This document shows positions 7,812 to 33,403 of a stretch of 64,000 nt of DNA, piece by piece (position 1 is the first letter of the stretch; every line of letters begins with the position of its first letter). Location of the stretch: the NCBI GenBank assembly GCA_020854035.1, contig JADZGE010000069.1:363-64362 (forward strand). The letters are read 5' to 3'. Both the position numbers and the translations under genes were made by a program. This DNA comes from Burkholderiales bacterium (lineage in GTDB: Bacteria > Pseudomonadota > Gammaproteobacteria > Burkholderiales > SG8-41). The notes below the pieces were generated by a model. It saw only the letters and a list, made by a program, of their open reading frames with translations, was not told the DNA's origin and did no database searches.

Positions 7812-8783
7812 TCACTCGAGCAGGGCGGAGACGAACTCGCCCGCATCGAACGGGCGCAGGTCATCCAGCCCTTCGCCGACGCCGATGAAGCGCAGCGGTA
7901 TCGGCCGCTCGCGGGCGGAACCCGGGCGCAGATGCGCGATCGCCGCGATGACGCCGCCACGCGCGCTGCCGTCGAGCTTGGTGAGGATGAGCCCGGTCAC
8001 GCCAAGCGCATCGTCGAACGCCTTCACCTGCGCGAGCGCATTCTGGCCGGTGTTCGCGTCGAGAACGAGCAGCACCTCGTGGGGCGCGCCCGGCAGCGCC
8101 TTGGCGATGACGCGCTTCACCTTCCTGATTTCCTCCATGAGGTGGAGCTGGGTCGGCAGCCGCCCAGCGGTGTCGGCGAGCACGACGTCGATCCCTCGCG
8201 CCTGCGCCGCGTTGATGGCGTCGTAGATCACCGCGGCGGCGTCCCCCGATTGCTGCGAGATCACCGTCACACCGTTCCGCTCGCCCCACGCGATGAGCTG
8301 TTCGCGCGCCGCGGCGCGAAACGTGTCTCCCGCGGCGAGCAGCACCGAGTGCCCCTGGCCCCGAAAATAATTCGCGAGCTTGCCGATCGAGGTGGTCTTG
8401 CCGCTGCCGTTCACCCCGGCCAGCATGATGACGAAGGGACGGCGCGCGTCCACGGCGAGCGGGACGGCGAGCGGCTCGAGCGCCGCGAGCAGCGCGCCGT
8501 GCAGCGCGTCCTTCAGTTGCGCGGCGTCGGTATAACGCCCGCGGCGCGCGCGCTCGCGCACCGCCTCGATGAGCGCCGCGCTCGCGCCGGGGCCCACGTC
8601 GGCAGTGAGGAGGACGGCCTCCAGCTCCTCGTAGAGCGACGCGTCGAGAGCGCGGCCAGCCCCGAAAAGACCCGCGAGGCGGGAGCCAAGCTGCCGGCGT
8701 GTCTTGTCGAGGCCCTGCTTCAGGCGGTCGATCCAGCGGGAGCCGCCGCCGTCGCCCTTCGAACCTCTCAGGAAACTAAACAC
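7812..8783 (-). CDS. ftsY: signal recognition particle receptor FtsY
   Basis: GTG at 8783 (VFSFLRGSK...). Carries the SRP GTPase motifs GVNGSGKTTSIGK, DTAGR and TKLDG. The 276-aa upstream extension of the ORF overlaps the M16 gene and looks non-coding. Confidence 0.9.
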   Translation of the reverse strand: MFSFLRGSKGDGGGSRWIDRLKQGLDKTRRQLGSRLAGLFGAGRALDASLYEELEAVLLTADVGPGASAALIEAVRERARRGRYTDAAQLKDALHGALLAALEPLAVPLAVDARRPFVIMLAGVNGSGKTTSIGKLANYFRGQGHSVLLAAGDTFRAAAREQLIAWGERNGVTVISQQSGDAAAVIYDAINAAQARGIDVVLADTAGRLPTQLHLMEEIRKVKRVIAKALPGAPHEVLLVLDANTGQNALAQVKAFDDALGVTGLILTKLDGSARGGVIAAIAHLRPGSARERPIPLRFIGVGEGLDDLRPFDAGEFVSALLE

Positions 8784-27597: not shown

Positions 27598-28497
27598 TTA
27601 CCGTTTGAGGCTGATCGCGACGACGCCCACGAGCACCAGCGCCGAGCCGGCGAGCTGCAGCGGGGTCATGACTTCCTCGAGCCCCAGCCAGCCGAACGCG
27701 ATGGTCGTGATGGGGCCGAGCGCGCCGACGATCGCGACGGTGTTCGCGCCCACGCGCTTCAGCGCCTCCGAGGTCATGAAAACGGGGATGGCGGTGGACA
27801 CGACCGCCATGCCGATCGCGTAGCCGTAGACCGGCGCGGGGAGGTCGAGGGCGGCGAGCGGCCGCAGGAGCACCCACTGCAGGATGCACGCGGCGCTCGC
27901 GGCCGACATCGCGTAGGCGGTGAAGCGCACCGAGCCCACGCGCGCTATGACTTCGGAACCCGCGACGAGGTAGACCGCGTAGCAGAGCGCGCTCGCGAAC
28001 GCGAGCGCGGCGCCAAGCCAGAGGTCGCGCTCGCCGCCGCCGAGCGACTGCGCGAAGACCAGGACGAGACCCCCGTAGGTCAGCGCGAGCGCGACGACCT
28101 CCCGCCGCGTGACGCGCTTGCCGAGCATCAGCGCCGAGAGCACGACGACCATCGTGGGATACACGAAGAGAAGCAGTCGCCCGAGCCCGGCGGAGATGTA
28201 CTGGAGCGCGAGAAAATCGAGGAAGCTCGCCCCGTAGTAGCTGAGGACGCCCAGGGCGCACACCGCGGCGAACTCGCGCCCCGCGAGCGGGCGATGCCCG
28301 GCGCCGCTCCTCACCCAGTACGCCGCGCCGAGGAAGAACGGCAGCGCGAACACCATCCGCAGCGCGAGCAGCGTCACCGGGTCGACGACGTGCGCGTAGG
28401 CGAGCTTGATGAAGATCGGCCGGATGGAGAAGAACACCACCCCGCCGATGGCGAGGAGCAGCCCGGAGACGAAATAACCGCGCGCGGGGGCGGACAT
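27598..28497 (-). CDS. DMT superfamily (EamA-like) transporter
   Basis: 299 aa with ten predicted TM helices in two EamA-like halves. Confidence 0.9.
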   Translation of the reverse strand: MSAPARGYFVSGLLLAIGGVVFFSIRPIFIKLAYAHVVDPVTLLALRMVFALPFFLGAAYWVRSGAGHRPLAGREFAAVCALGVLSYYGASFLDFLALQYISAGLGRLLLFVYPTMVVVLSALMLGKRVTRREVVALALTYGGLVLVFAQSLGGGERDLWLGAALAFASALCYAVYLVAGSEVIARVGSVRFTAYAMSAASAACILQWVLLRPLAALDLPAPVYGYAIGMAVVSTAIPVFMTSEALKRVGANTVAIVGALGPITTIAFGWLGLEEVMTPLQLAGSALVLVGVVAISLKR

Positions 28498-28757
28498 CGG
28501 ATTCGAAGGGACTGACCGAAGAGGGGGCGGTTAGTCGAGCCGAGCGCTACCGGGCAAGGCCCGCGCGCGCACTATCCAGAGTGACGCAACCTCGCTTCTG
28601 CAATCCGTCTCGTCCGGCACGCTTCGGCGACATTCTTGCGGCGGTGCGACGGGGTCTTCAAATAGATCCATACGTCTGATTCGATGAGGGTTTGTCGACC
28701 TTACTGTGCTTCCATAAACCAGCTAAATTCCACCAAATCGGAACCAGTGGGGGGAGC

Positions 28758-29735
28758 TCAGCAGTACTGTCGCACCAGCGCCTTCAGCGTCATGTTCTCC
28801 GCAATCGCGGTATGCGGGATCAGAGCATACCGCCAAGGCTTTCCGCCATTTCCCTGAGCGTGGTCTGATGCATTGCGGCACCATTTGACCGCCGATTCCT
28901 TCTTCGCAAGCACCACCGGGTCGGTCATCTCGTTGCTTGCCTTGGGTTCGAGCATGTAGATCTCGCCGTCAACCTCTGCCACGAAGTCTGGTTGGTACTC
29001 GAGATGTTCCGAGCCCTGGCGGTAGAAGATCTGGAACTGCCCCTTCGCGGGTTTGAACCAGCGCAACGCATCCCGCTCCAGGATCACCGCCAGTTTGCGC
29101 TCGGCGTCGGAATCGAATTTCTGCACCGGATAGAGGCAGCGTGCGAATCCGCCAAACAGGTACTTCGACATGTTGCTCTTGTCGGATGGAGACACGCGGT
29201 AGTCGGCCGGTGGCTCCTGCGCCGTGCAGGTATACGCGCTCGGCTTCAACTCCGAGTAACCCTTGCTAACCTTGACCTCGTAACCAGGGGCGTCCTCCCA
29301 ATAGTGCTCCTGCATCTGCGCGTGGATGAAGCGCGCGATGTCGCGCTGGTAGCAGCGGTTCTCTTCGATGTGGTCAAACACCCACAACACTCCGTGACAG
29401 CGCACTTCCCCGGCCTCAGCGAGACGGCGCATCGCAGCCTCGCCGGCGAGGAGTACTGCGGCCTCGGCCTTGGCGAGCGAGAGTGCGTAACTGTCATGAA
29501 TGGAGATGCGGCGTTCGCGCGAGCGCAGGCGCTGGGCCTCGGCGACCTCCTCGCCGGAGAGGGATCGGACCTGAAGGCCGAGGGCCATGAGGCGTTCGCC
29601 GCCATAGTCCTTGAGTTCTGCTTCATACAGCGCGTCCGGCACGACAAAGCGGTAGGGCAATGAGAACACCTGCTCGATCAACTGCGCGCGTTCGAGGTCG
29701 ATGACGACGGACGTGTCCGAGACCAGGACGTCCAT
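28758..29735 (-). CDS. chimeric ORF: PIN domain nuclease (aa 1 to about 125) fused to the C-terminal PD-(D/E)xK region of a type III-like restriction Res subunit
   Basis: N-terminal PIN hallmarks are present: VLVSDTSVVIDL, IHDSYALSLAKAEAAVLLAGE and HGVLWVFD. From about aa 126 the sequence resembles Res C-termini (KFDSDAERKLAVILERD..LRWFKP...YQPDFVAEVDGEIYMLEPK...KWC). The start lies 12 nt after the XRE-ImmA stop. Confidence 0.65.
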   Translation of the reverse strand: MDVLVSDTSVVIDLERAQLIEQVFSLPYRFVVPDALYEAELKDYGGERLMALGLQVRSLSGEEVAEAQRLRSRERRISIHDSYALSLAKAEAAVLLAGEAAMRRLAEAGEVRCHGVLWVFDHIEENRCYQRDIARFIHAQMQEHYWEDAPGYEVKVSKGYSELKPSAYTCTAQEPPADYRVSPSDKSNMSKYLFGGFARCLYPVQKFDSDAERKLAVILERDALRWFKPAKGQFQIFYRQGSEHLEYQPDFVAEVDGEIYMLEPKASNEMTDPVVLAKKESAVKWCRNASDHAQGNGGKPWRYALIPHTAIAENMTLKALVRQYC

Positions 29736-29747
29736 CGCCCGGCGCCC

Positions 29748-30806
29748 TCAGGCCGGGTTTTCCAGCCGCCGCCCCAGCTCCCGGACCGTGATCCCCAGAA
29801 GCTCCGCGGCTTTCGCCTCCGAAATCGCGCCCTCGGACACCGCGCGGTAGCAGAGCCGCGTGAATCGTTCCGGTTTCTCCGGCGGGACCGCGCCAGGCTC
29901 GGCATAGGGCGGTTTCCGCCATCCCCGGCGCACGAACTCCTCGAACAGACGCTTGAAGACTGGCTCGCCGATGATCCCCAAGTCCTTCAAGCGATACGTG
30001 ATTGCCTGGATGCTGACCTTGAAAAGCGCTTTCAGCTCGACCAGCTCGCCAATGGAGAGTGCGTCGCGGTGCTTGCCGACCTCCCTCCAGAGAATCTCGG
30101 CGGGCATCAAGAAAGCGCTCGCGAAGCGGTGCGCGAGCTTCTCGCCGGCCGCACCGCCCGGTACCTGGAGCACATGGTGCGCCAGTTCATGCGCGAGCGT
30201 GAAGCGCTGGCGCTCGCCCGTGTCGTCCTGATTGACCATGACAATCGGCACGTCGGCGCCCTTGCTGCGGCGCGCGACGCACATGAGTCCCGACACGCGC
30301 TCGCCCAGCTTGAGCGGAATCACCTTGACGCCCTGTTCTTCCAGGAACTCGGCGAGGTTGGGGATCGGGTCATTGCCCAGGGTCCACGCCGAGCGCAGGC
30401 GCTCCGCCGCTGCTTCGGCCTCGCCCTGCTCGCTCACGCGGTACGGCACGCCCTGCGGTGGCGACCATGCGCCGCTCGGTGCCCCAATGAAGTCCTCGAT
30501 CTCCAGGTAGCGCTCCACCGCGCTCAGAACCGAGGCCTTGATGGAGGCCTCTTCCTTGCGGCTGGTGATCTTGTTCTTGCGGAATTCCATCGCCTCGAGC
30601 CTCAGGTCGTTCTCACCGAGGAGATAGCTCTCCGGCACATTCAGCGCCCTGGCGATGGCGGCAAGCACGTCCGAGCCGGGCATCATCTCGTCTCGCTCGT
30701 ATTTACTAAGTGCTTGTGCGGACACGCGTTTGTCAATGGCGGCTACCAGGTCGCGCAGGGACATCCCCGCTGCCTTGCGGGCTAGCGCTAGTCGTTTACC
30801 GATCAT
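29748..30806 (-). CDS. XRE-family HTH fused to an ImmA/IrrE (M78) metallopeptidase domain
   Basis: ATG at 30806 (MIGKRLALARKAAGMSLRDLV, HTH). Central zinc motif HELAHHVL (HExxH) followed by FASAFLMP, typical of ImmA/IrrE. Confidence 0.9.
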   Translation of the reverse strand: MIGKRLALARKAAGMSLRDLVAAIDKRVSAQALSKYERDEMMPGSDVLAAIARALNVPESYLLGENDLRLEAMEFRKNKITSRKEEASIKASVLSAVERYLEIEDFIGAPSGAWSPPQGVPYRVSEQGEAEAAAERLRSAWTLGNDPIPNLAEFLEEQGVKVIPLKLGERVSGLMCVARRSKGADVPIVMVNQDDTGERQRFTLAHELAHHVLQVPGGAAGEKLAHRFASAFLMPAEILWREVGKHRDALSIGELVELKALFKVSIQAITYRLKDLGIIGEPVFKRLFEEFVRRGWRKPPYAEPGAVPPEKPERFTRLCYRAVSEGAISEAKAAELLGITVRELGRRLENPA

Positions 30807-30838
30807 GGCAGGCCTCTCGGCAATGGTGGATGGGCAAG

Positions 30839-30867
30839 TTGACAAATGATGTATATTATATACTATC
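30839..30867. promoter_or_regulatory. divergent promoter/operator candidate
   Basis: TTGACA (30839-30844), a 16-nt spacer, then TACTAT (30861-30866) on the plus strand. TATAAT lies on the minus strand (30860-30855). The perfect palindrome GTATAT-T-ATATAC (30851-30863) overlaps both. Confidence 0.4.
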
Positions 30868-30944
30868 TGTAAACTATCGAGCCGCACCGTCAGGAACCCC
30901 TCCCGCCGGCGGACGGCGCCGGGCTATCAAATCGGAGCACAGCC

Positions 30945-31247
30945 ATGGCGCACAATCCCGGAAGGAAGAAAGATGGCGGTAGTTTTGACGAAGCGACGAT
31001 CGAAGCAGTCTGGCAGAAGGGAACGCCCGTTCCCGGTTACGCAGCCTTCCGCAGGGACGCCTGCGGCGCACTGATGCAGCGGAATCGCCACGGGTTGGCC
31101 ATGCAGTACGGTTGGGAGATCGATCACATTTATCCGATTTCCAAGGGCGGTTCCGACAATCTCAGCAACCTGCAGCCGCTACAGTGGGAGAACAACCGCA
31201 ACAAGGGCGATTCGACTTCCGGCAACTACTGCAAGGTTGCGGCCTGA
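30945..31247 (+). CDS. small HNH endonuclease
   Basis: 100 aa with the WEIDHIYPISKGGSDNLSNLQPLQWENNRNKGD beta-beta-alpha-Me motif. Confidence 0.85.
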   Translation: MAHNPGRKKDGGSFDEATIEAVWQKGTPVPGYAAFRRDACGALMQRNRHGLAMQYGWEIDHIYPISKGGSDNLSNLQPLQWENNRNKGDSTSGNYCKVAA

Positions 31248-31254
31248 GGCTCCC

Positions 31255-31446
31255 ATGAACGGATTCGACAACGAAACCCACCGTGCTGTATTCGAGAAGT
31301 CGAACGGGCTCTGCCACCTGTGCCGGGAGCCGATCGCATTCTCGAACTACGGAAACCACGGCGCACGCGGCGCCTGGGAAATCGATCATTCCAGGCCCAA
31401 GTCGCAAGGCGGTACCGATCACCTGAACAACCTCTACGCGGCCCAT
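31255..31446 (+). pseudogene. second HNH endonuclease gene, truncated at the 3' end
   Basis: ATG lies 8 nt after the HNH-1 stop. CHLC...WEIDHSRPKSQGGTDHLNNLYAAH is retained, but the expected CNxxK zinc-finger tail is replaced by read-through into the inverted helicase fragment. The ORF stop is at 31626. Confidence 0.6.
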
Positions 31447-31820
31447 ACCGCGATACGCTTCTCGAAATCGACGCCGGATTCGATCGCGCCCAGGACTTCG
31501 TCGCTCGCGCCGAACACCCCCTCGAAGAGTTGGAACTTCTGCGACAGGAGTTCGAACACACGCCGGTCCGCGTCGTTCTTGCGGTTGAGGAAGTTGACGA
31601 CCACAACGTCGTGCTCCTGCCCGTAGCGATGGTAGCGGCCGATGCGCTGCTCGATCCGCTGCGGATTCCAGGGCAGGTCGTAATTCACCACCAGCGAGCA
31701 GAACTGCGGATTGATGCCCTCGGCGCCTGCCCCGGTGGCGATCATGATGCGGCCCTGCTCGCGGAAATAGTCCACGAGCGCGGAGCGCATGTCGGCGGTG
31801 CGTGAACCGGTGACGCGATC
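31434..31820 (-). pseudogene. SNF2-family helicase fragment (C-terminal lobe only)
   Basis: Helicase motifs IV-VI only: IMIATGAGAEGINPQFCSLVVNYDLPWNPQRIEQRIGRYHRYGQ...VVVVNF. There is no ATPase N-lobe, and the upstream part of the 360-aa ORF is Arg/Gly-rich junk overlapping the herA-like gene. Confidence 0.7.
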
Positions 31821-31894
31821 CGTCGGCGTCCGTTGACCTTCAAAATCCAAAGCTGATCGCCCGGCCAGCCGCTGGAACGAGCCTGTCGCGAAAG

Positions 31895-33403
31895 CTACCG
31901 TTTTCGCCCCCCGAGCAGGCCGCCGAGTACGCCCCGGACGATCTCCCGGCCGACCTGCGACCCGATGGCCCGCGCCGCGCTCTTTGCCGCCGCCTCGAGC
32001 GCGCCCTCGCGCCGGCCGCCGCGCGGACCGGTCGAACCGCCGAGGAGACCCCCGAGCGCGTCGAGAAAGCCGCCGCCGCGCCCGGCCTGGGCGCTCCCGC
32101 CCGCGCCACCGGAGGCAGGCGACTCGACCCCCGCGCGCCGCTGGAGCATTTCGCAGGCGGATTCCCGGTCCACCGCCTTGTCGTAGACGCCCGCCACGAC
32201 GGAAGACGCCATCACTTTCCGTCGCTCCTCCGCGCTGACCGGCCCCACCCGCGTGCCCGGCGGCACGACGAGCGCGCGCTCGACGACGGTGGGGCGGCCC
32301 TTCTCGTCGAGCATCGAAACGAGCGCCTCGCCCACCGCGAGCTCGGTGATCGCCGCCTCCACGTCGAGCTTCGGGTTCGCGCGGAGCGTCGTCGCTGCCG
32401 CCTTGACGGCCTTCTGGTCGCGAGGGGTGAAAGCGCGCAGCGCGTGCTGCACGCGGTTGCCGAGCTGTCCCAGCACGGTGTCGGGCACGTCGAGCGGGTT
32501 CTGGGTGACGAACCACACCCCCACGCCCTTGGAGCGGATCAACCGCACCACCTGCTCGATTCTCTCCAGCAGCGCGGGCGGTGCGTCGGTGAAGAGTAGA
32601 TGCGCCTCGTCGAAGAAGAACACGAGCTTCGGCTTCTCCGGGTCGCCCACTTCCGGCAGCGCTTCGAAGAGCTCGGAGAGCATCCAGAGGAGCAGCGTCG
32701 AGTAGAGCTTAGGCGCGCTCATCAGCCGCTCGGCGGCGAGGATGTTGACGAGCCCGCGGCCGCGCGCGTCGGTCTGGATGAGGTCCGCGAGGTTCAGCGC
32801 CGGCTCGCCGAAGAACCGGTCGCCGCCCTGCTGCTCGATCGCGAGGAGCCCGCGCTGTATCGCGCCGATCGACGCGGCGGAAACGTTGCCGTACTGCGTC
32901 GTGAAGGCGCGCGCGTTCTCGCCGACGTGGGCGAGGAGTGCGCGAAGATCCTTGAGGTCGAGCAGCAGCAGCTTGTTGTCGTCGGCGATCTTGAAGGCGA
33001 GCGCGAGCACGCCGGACTGGGTCTCGTTCAGTCCCAGCATGCGGGCGAGAAGGAGCGGCCCCATCTCGGAAACGGTGGCGCGCACGGGGTGTCCCAGCTC
33101 GCCGAAGGGATCCCAGAAGGTGACCGGACAAGCCTCGAAGGCCATGTCACCGAGGCGGAGCCGCTCGATGCGCTCCTTGATCCTGCCTTTCGGCTCGCCC
33201 GGCTGCGAGAGTCCCGCGAGATCCCCCTTCACGTCGGCCAGGAACACCGGCACGCCGATGCGGGAGAGCCCTTCGGCGATGCGCTGGAGCGTCACGGTCT
33301 TGCCCGTGCCGGTTGCTCCGGCGATCAGGCCGTGGCGGTTGGCGAACTTCGGCAGCAGCGTCGCATCGGAGTCGCTTTTCGCGACGAGAATCGGCTCGGG
33401 CAT
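31895..33403 (-). CDS. HerA-like helicase domain protein (DUF853/YjgR family ATPase)
   Basis: Walker A GATGTGKT near the N-terminus, [10 protein letters not shown] Walker B region, 502 aa. Confidence 0.9.

Follow-up and report, generated by a model that had tools for sequence, protein, structure and literature searches.

Gene content of the islet

The window analysed here is a stretch of 64,000 nucleotides (nt) from a Burkholderiales bacterium (assembly GCA_020854035.1, contig JADZGE010000069.1, positions 363–64,362 of the forward strand), the source being a metagenome-assembled genome (MAG). It contains a 3.1 kb islet (~28757–31823) with a GC content of 0.63–0.64 compared to ~0.70 in its surroundings, which holds a gene for an Xre-M78 regulator resembling RmrA of the RosmerTA toxin-antitoxin (TA) system and, directly behind it, an open reading frame (ORF) that a first-pass annotation, made from the sequence alone, took for an intact PIN nuclease gene. 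Where labels are needed, L denotes contigs with homologues, G genomes (G000 being the source MAG) and P homologous proteins.

The rmrA-like gene is intact and occupies 29748–30806 on the minus strand (stop codon at 29748–29750). It encodes a product of 352 amino acids (aa) beginning MIGKRL, and because all homologues share a start at MIG we place the initiation codon at the ATG at 30806 and not at the upstream GTG at 30887. Pfam identifies a helix-turn-helix (HTH) domain (HTH_3, 1.8e-11, residues 7–62) and a peptidase domain (Peptidase_M78, 1.7e-17, residues 156–274), in which the sequence HELAHHVL supplies the HExxH motif (H206-E207-x-x-H210) and H206, E207, H210 and E222 are all kept. This is the combination of an XRE HTH with an M78 peptidase that the first-pass annotation had described, and the profile searches it proposed for the regulator matched in PADLOC as well as in Pfam, with 14 RmrA models aligning over the full length (best PDLC03949, 1e-54, residues 4–344). 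The PADLOC capP model also matches the product (8e-18), and the top NCBIfam match, 'spr1629 family repressor/antitoxin', falls below its cutoff.

Compared with 53 homologues that are 48–83% identical, the protein keeps 120 of the 122 columns conserved at a level of at least 95%, the two exceptions (L51I and R158Q) being within the normal range for the family. An AlphaFold (AF2) model based on a 39-sequence alignment (predicted local distance difference test, pLDDT, 88.8) comprises the HTH (~3–63), a long linker helix, an M78/ImmA-IrrE Zn-peptidase domain (~127–293) and a C-terminal three-helix domain (314–349). Foldseek searches with this model retrieved PprI/IrrE (8sln, 3dti, 3dte), CapP (7t5t), ImmR (7t8i) and CapH (7t5u), and matches to the RmrA sequence profile included 3dte, 7t5t and 8slm. 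The top sequence match to the peptidase region of that profile was PDB entry 9vzy_A (1.4e-9), a 393-aa 'HTH cro/C1-type domain-containing protein' for which we found no describing paper in the literature, and which is possibly the first Xre-M78 fusion with a solved structure.

The downstream ORF is a chimera of two genes

The rmrA-like stop codon is followed by a spacer of 12 nt (29736–29747, minus strand) and an ATG at 29733–29735, precisely the gap reported in the first-pass annotation and also the spacing found in the closest loci (L003, L007–L009, L011 and L022). The ORF that begins here (28758–29735, minus strand, 325 aa) contains both motifs that had been picked out as PIN-like, VSDTS and IHDSYAL. 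It is not an intact PIN gene, as had been claimed, but a stop-free, in-frame fusion of the 5' part of one gene to the 3' end of another, with the junction at ~29355–29357. Codons 1–127 (29355–29735), assigned by alignment with homologues, are 80–91% identical to proteins of 163–175 aa that carry the label PF11848/DUF3368, 'predicted nucleic acid-binding protein', and this alignment ends exactly past the sequence FDHIEENR. The ~39 C-terminal codons of the family (residues 128–166 of ~166) are missing. The remainder (28758–29354) comprises the last 198 codons and the stop codon of a type III restriction (Res) gene, identified by PADLOC (REase_III, 4.4e-45, profile positions 667–861 of 871), blastn, tblastn (residues 128–325 correspond to residues 695–892 of the Res protein on L011) and alignment of the junction. 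This tail retains the PD-(D/E)xK motif, QPDF...LEPK. No Mod gene is present in the islet, and of the two components of a type III restriction-modification (R-M) system the islet holds only Res ~695–892, while L011 has intact Mod and Res genes.

The current copy of Pfam gave no match to PIN or DUF3368 above threshold, either for the 325-aa ORF or for its intact homologues, and the PIN assignment is based on predicted structure together with precomputed PF11848 labels. A model of the intact 166-aa homologue on L011 (P0032, L011:10001–10501; 48-sequence alignment, pLDDT 94.7) displays a PIN fold followed by two extra C-terminal helices (131–142 and 151–164). Its top Foldseek match is 2mdt (SSO1118), the structure cited as representative of COG2405 (PMC5499597), and further matches include VapC2, VapC4, VapC11, VapC15, FitB and HARP RNase P. 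The extra helices hold the motif L134..L138..H144-P-R-C-R-L-P150, which is invariant in 118 close and 44 distant homologues (down to 40% identity), and the subfamily also has an invariant or near-invariant C113/H114 pair (RCHG). These features may form an interface with the antitoxin, coordinate a metal or bind the substrate. None of the PADLOC RmrT models, which describe the RosmerTA toxin, matches the window ORF (E<=0.01) or the intact homologue (E<=1e-5); the sole toxin-side PADLOC matches, both weak, point to PDC-S70, a candidate family (6.5e-5 for the window fragment and 7.5e-6 for the intact homologue).

In addition to losing the L134..L138..HPRCRLP tail, the window copy has Glu at position 99 (motif LLAGD), where all 162 homologues have Asp. 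By its position after the fourth strand, Asp99 probably corresponds to the third of the acidic residues in VapC toxins, which is essential there. The PIN part shows three deviations in 73 conserved columns compared to a family mean of 0.8, a number reached by 4% of homologues, so that an excess of changes at conserved sites is seen in the PIN fragment and not in RmrA. The window copy thus does not make up a full-length PIN-like domain with all conserved acidic residues (D99E, residues 128–166 gone), and judging from its sequence the toxin half is most likely dead, having lost its invariant two-helix extension and acquired Glu at a site where the active-site Asp is otherwise invariant.

We also considered whether PIN-Res fusions occur naturally. 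When the 325-aa product was searched against 5.8 billion proteins, the only protein spanning both halves was that of the window itself, all other matches covering the Res part only, and a natural fusion was therefore rejected. P0161, which appeared to be a second fusion (94% coverage), is a normal fragment of Res that has been spuriously extended.

The parent island and its decay

Intact relatives of the islet are found on the contigs that carry the closest PIN homologues, of which L011 is the reference used here. The L011 island comprises genes for ZacB-like and ZacC-like (helicase) proteins, a DrmD-like SNF2 helicase (949 aa), two HNH endonucleases (142 and 100 aa), the Xre-M78 protein (352 aa), the PIN-like protein (166 aa), AIPR/AbiU, a type III methyltransferase (Mod, 542 aa) and a type III restriction endonuclease (Res, 893 aa), with both HNH genes on the opposite strand to the rest. 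The same frame with swapped cargo is present in L003–L011 and L022, the genes between PIN and mod being AIPR/AbiU, an AAA_23 SMC-like ATPase, or DUF2130 with SIR2 and HerA. Identification of the parent island as ARMADA was rejected, as the paper describing ARMADA reports a different gene set, and it is best described by its parts: ZacB/ZacC-like, DrmD-like, two HNH genes, RmrA-PIN, cargo and type III R-M.

Mapped by blastn, the islet corresponds to L011 in three colinear pieces: window 31823–31448 to L011 6632–7007 (mid-SNF2), window 31452–29356 to L011 8284–10380 (the 5' end of the second HNH gene through PIN codon 127) and window 29357–28757 to L011 15984–16584 (the 3' end of res). Two deletions, of ~1.3 kb and ~5.6 kb on the L011 scale, therefore account for the islet, and both junctions show 3–5 nt of microhomology. 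The larger would have taken the end of the PIN gene, the cargo and mod genes and the first 2.1 kb of res, so that PIN codon 127 now continues in frame into Res at codon ~695, and the smaller the 3' ends of the SNF2 and second HNH genes.

What remains beside the smaller junction fits this outline. The 100-aa HNH gene, divergent from rmrA, is intact (30945–31247, plus strand; Pfam HNH_4 and HNH) and has a counterpart in the equivalent position in L003, L004, L007–L009, L011 and L022. It is followed by a 5' remnant of the second HNH gene (31255–31452, plus strand; ~66 of 142 codons, identified by blastn and a Pfam HNH match of 4e-5), in which window position 31452 equals L011 8284, inside the 142-aa HNH gene (8053–8481). 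The SNF2 piece (31448–31823, minus strand) is an internal fragment of a DrmD-like helicase that includes the helicase C-terminal motifs; it is 86% identical to its L011 counterpart by blastn and matches DrmD (1.4e-62, PADLOC/NCBIfam) and Pfam Helicase_C. A second SNF2-like sequence in the source genome (G000:C37:37593–37710, 73% identity over 118 nt to the fragment) may belong to another SNF2 helicase gene elsewhere in that genome.

Pairwise ratios of nonsynonymous to synonymous substitution (dN/dS) against L011 are low for all segments compared (rmrA 0.12, PIN 1–127 0.06, Res tail 0.08, 100-aa HNH gene 0.14), with dS saturated, and no window fragment contains a frameshift, including the dead Res tail and SNF2 piece. 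Compared with the divergence of the islet from its known relatives the deletions are therefore recent, and no long period of neutral drift has followed, which is the simplest reading of equally unscarred segments, and the intactness of rmrA consequently needs no special explanation.

Erosion of this kind is not confined to the window. In L007 (433–1011) and L008 (3478–4056) the SNF2 helicase has shrunk to a 142-aa stub, an independent case of island decay, and in a Nitrosovibrio MAG (L076:7413–8336) rmrA has shrunk to 191 aa and the first ~32 PIN residues alone are recognisable. Type III res genes of the same lineage are repeatedly broken elsewhere (L089, L090/L091 and L092), the damage ranging from a frameshift close to codon 681 through the internal deletion of a solo remnant to break-up into several fragments. 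Many ~200-aa ORFs starting MLRCYQRD suggested that breaks recur where the Res nuclease domain begins. This was rejected, as these ORFs are gene calls from an internal GTG and the underlying breakpoints and frameshifts differ.

Genomic site of the insertion

Host genes border the islet at both ends, in synteny with genomes of the same genus. The flanking genes encode EamA and DUF853 proteins, which lie 25–190 bp apart, as an empty site, in G022, G016, G013 and G008 of the same genus, and a search of 24 same-genus genomes yielded no close copy of the rmrA-like gene. These empty sites and the lack of a close rmrA homologue within the genus point to an island that is foreign to the lineage. No convincing direct repeats flanking the islet were found, and the alignment of the window with the empty site of G022 is too diverged to give exact insertion ends.

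The EamA/DUF853 intergenic site (window 28483–31896, G022:C206:11348–11519) is variable within the genus, and in other same-genus genomes it has inserts of 2–8 kb that carry ordinary genes (amidohydrolase, peptidase C26, TauE, DUF899). It was considered as a defence hotspot of the genus and rejected, since the remaining inserts are ordinary metabolic and transport genes.

Interpretation of the locus

We propose, with a probability of about 80%, that a composite defence island, acquired by horizontal transfer, has recently degraded to the remnant seen at this locus, in which the toxin is dead and the regulator has been orphaned. Several points weigh against this. The canonical PIN core is still encoded (five strands; D7, E40, D81 and D121), and D99E is a conservative change, so that residual nuclease activity is possible. 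How long the deleted segment was and what it contained are estimated from relatives only ~76% identical in DNA. Even the intact PIN homologue, as noted above, matches no RmrT model, and the toxicity, neutralisation, cleavage and trigger ascribed to the PIN subfamily are all drawn by analogy from families. Finally, the junctions come from the assembly of an incomplete MAG (128 contigs, 86% complete, 5.8% contamination).

This last point raises the question of whether the two junctions, PIN-Res and HNH-SNF2, were created by the assembly, the genes being intact in the real genome. We regard this as highly improbable. Both junctions join colinear parts of a single island in the right order and orientation, their microhomology is only 3–5 nt and they have no repeat of a length that would confuse an assembler, the host genes on both flanks are syntenic with those of same-genus genomes, and comparable decay occurs in independent assemblies (L007/L008, L076 and L089–L092).

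Alternatively, the module might still work, with a toxic chimera (the PIN core with or without the PD-(D/E)xK domain) and rmrA kept by addiction or defence. The absence of stop codons from the in-frame fusion, the near-complete set of conserved RmrA residues and the retained QPDF...LEPK motif are consistent with this, as is the extent of the PIN part, whose 127 residues span strands 1–5 and the next helix and come near the canonical size of VapC (Foldseek targets of 132–146 aa). However, the invariant L..L..HPRCRLP extension is gone and D99 is Glu, no second PIN-Res fusion exists among the 5.8 billion proteins, and the Res nuclease domain stands alone, without its Mod partner and translocase. 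The dead SNF2 and second HNH pieces are moreover as unscarred as rmrA, whose intactness is explained by recency. A working module is therefore decidedly unlikely in our view. Retention of the pair by addiction or defence, suggested in the first-pass annotation, finds no support where dead neighbours are equally free of frameshifts and dN/dS is 0.06–0.14 throughout, and the description of the pair as the only fully intact operon of the islet does not hold for a toxin gene cut at codon 127, joined to a Res remnant and bearing D99E.

Conservation of the pair and relation to known systems

Outside the window, the pair of genes is strongly conserved. Our survey covered 56 loci in genomes of Alpha-, Beta- and Gammaproteobacteria and of a small number of further phyla, and 55 of these loci had room upstream of the PIN-like gene. 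In 54 of these 55 an RmrA-like gene (~351–360 aa) ends 1–25 nt before the PIN-like gene (163–170 aa), and the two are never fused. The frame running from SNF2 to Mod-Res is restricted to the closest clade, the pair occurring elsewhere without that island, and 33–52 plasmids, mostly conjugative or mobilizable, also carry it. Travelling alone and being carried by plasmids is the behaviour of a mobile TA-type cassette. Thus the co-occurrence survey suggested in the first-pass annotation, together with the published predictions below, upholds its view of the kind of module involved, an Xre-M78 fusion with a PIN-like gene belonging to the TA/defence class.

The module is not novel. Three-component TA modules of HTH-DUF955 with a COG2405 (DUF3368) PIN-like protein were predicted in 2009 (Makarova, PMC2701414) and 2017 (Matelska, PMC5499597), the ImmA/Rosmer antitoxin node has been reported to pair with PIN-like toxins (Ernits 2023, PMC10440598), and the class has been validated as RosmerTA, which protects against phages and in which a delta-rmrA mutant was unobtainable (Millman 2022, 10.1101/2022.05.11.491447). 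The module is therefore already described, with its regulator modelled in PADLOC as RmrA, and the window holds a decayed copy, not a new system. It agrees with the predicted HTH-DUF955 + COG2405 module in having, on one strand, an HTH-DUF955 gene with HExxH followed by a COG2405 PIN-like gene, at a spacing of 12 nt where <100 nt is allowed. It differs in that the present subfamily adds the invariant C-terminal two-helix HPRCRLP extension, which the window copy lacks while bearing D99E.

Similarity to RosmerTA lies in the full-length RmrA match (HTH plus ImmA/IrrE-type Zn-peptidase), in the arrangement as two co-directional, tightly spaced genes and in the placement in a defence island and, for relatives, on plasmids. 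Unlike RosmerTA, the PIN gene is unmatched by RmrT models and the window toxin is truncated and fused. RmrA was thus found, but neither a toxin recognised as RmrT nor a complete two-gene system was found in the genome; formal membership fails on these two features (RmrT match and complete toxin), whereas the functional analogy may stand. With VapBC the locus shares the PIN fold (a structural match only, and for the intact homologue) and the antitoxin-first operon order, but the antitoxin is a 352-aa HTH-metallopeptidase and not a VapB of the ribbon-helix-helix (RHH), AbrB or Phd type.

The regulator also resembles ImmA/ImmR of ICEBs1, IrrE (PprI)/DdrO of Deinococcus and CapP/CapH of the cyclic oligonucleotide-based antiphage signalling system (CBASS). 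It has an M78 fold with HExxH and an XRE HTH in common with these, as well as the logic of repressor and protease at a promoter adjoining the controlled genes. In contrast to them, HTH and protease here form one polypeptide with an extra C-terminal helical domain, and no separate repressor gene is present beside the rmrA-like gene.

The divergent control region and proposed function

Between the rmrA-like and 100-aa HNH genes lies a control region (30807–30944) in which consensus matching predicts overlapping, face-to-face sigma70-like promoters. The predicted rmrA promoter is on the minus strand (TTTACA-16-CATCAT, 30873–30846) and the predicted HNH promoter on the plus strand (TTGACA-16-TACTAT, 30839–30866). 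L011 has the same divergent layout, and the -35 boxes are kept in five related loci (TTTACA-16/17 toward rmrA, TTGACA-16 toward HNH). A perfect palindrome, GTATATTATATAC, lies in the promoter spacer at 30851–30863. It was rejected as a conserved operator, being specific to the window: the five related loci lack it, have a different AT-rich spacer between their conserved -35 boxes in place of GTATATTATATAC, and keep only the face-to-face -35/-10 elements.

For the ancestral pair, we propose that the Xre-M78 protein would bind the divergent promoter region and silence the PIN nuclease, by repression and/or direct neutralisation. On a trigger such as infection or DNA damage, the Zn-peptidase would inactivate the repressor/antitoxin, by analogy with ImmA/ImmR, IrrE/DdrO and CapP/CapH, and the freed PIN nuclease would arrest the cell, as an abortive-infection or addiction module of the RosmerTA type. 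The RmrA of the window would then be an autoregulator orphaned too recently to have decayed, and it might still repress the HNH gene that diverges from it.

It is also conceivable that the Xre-M78 protein serves chiefly to switch transcription in response to damage or infection, in the manner of CapH/CapP or ImmR/ImmA, and is not a toxin-binding antitoxin. It would then control an operon of PIN, cargo, Mod and Res as well as the divergent HNH genes, of which almost nothing would be left to control in the window. This overlaps with the explanation just given, and it concerns the relatives. The rmrA, PIN, cargo, mod and res genes of intact islands share one orientation and overlap or are separated by short gaps (e.g. 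L011:8930–16583), and a consensus scan of L011 8000–17000 found no strong sigma70-like promoters apart from the divergent pair upstream of rmrA. Cargo is swapped between islands while rmrA-PIN stays constant, and the similarity of RmrA to CapP, IrrE/PprI and ImmR in structure and profile searches points the same way. Against this, distant loci and plasmids carry the pair alone, as expected of a self-contained TA cassette, and the promoters are predicted by consensus matching only. We therefore treat a predominantly transcriptional role as a tentative and rather unlikely alternative. A broader form of it, in which the Xre-M78 protein of intact relatives is a master switch, triggered by infection or damage, that gates the whole modular operon and two HNH genes from a single divergent promoter region, with the window keeping the switch and one HNH gene, appears more doubtful. 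If true, such an arrangement would be an inducible restriction/abortive-infection array with a hot-swappable cargo slot. Less likely still is the variant in which the PIN-PD-(D/E)xK chimera is a newly made two-nuclease toxin that RmrA still holds in check.

Implications

On the preferred reading, a degraded island with a dead toxin and an orphan regulator, the window itself matters little, as one more, and broken, Xre-M78 + PIN-like cassette. It does provide a clean snapshot of island erosion, in which a small number of large deletions, with microhomology at their ends, produce in-frame chimeras. Annotation can be misled by these, as in 'PIN domain protein, 325 aa'. A by-product of the analysis is the recurrent island frame, in which the pair lies just upstream of a swappable cargo slot and type III R-M genes. 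The PIN-like subfamily (163–170 aa, invariant HPRCRLP, nearly always preceded by rmrA) is well defined and highly conserved, and as its members match no RmrT model, complete copies would escape defence-finder tools.

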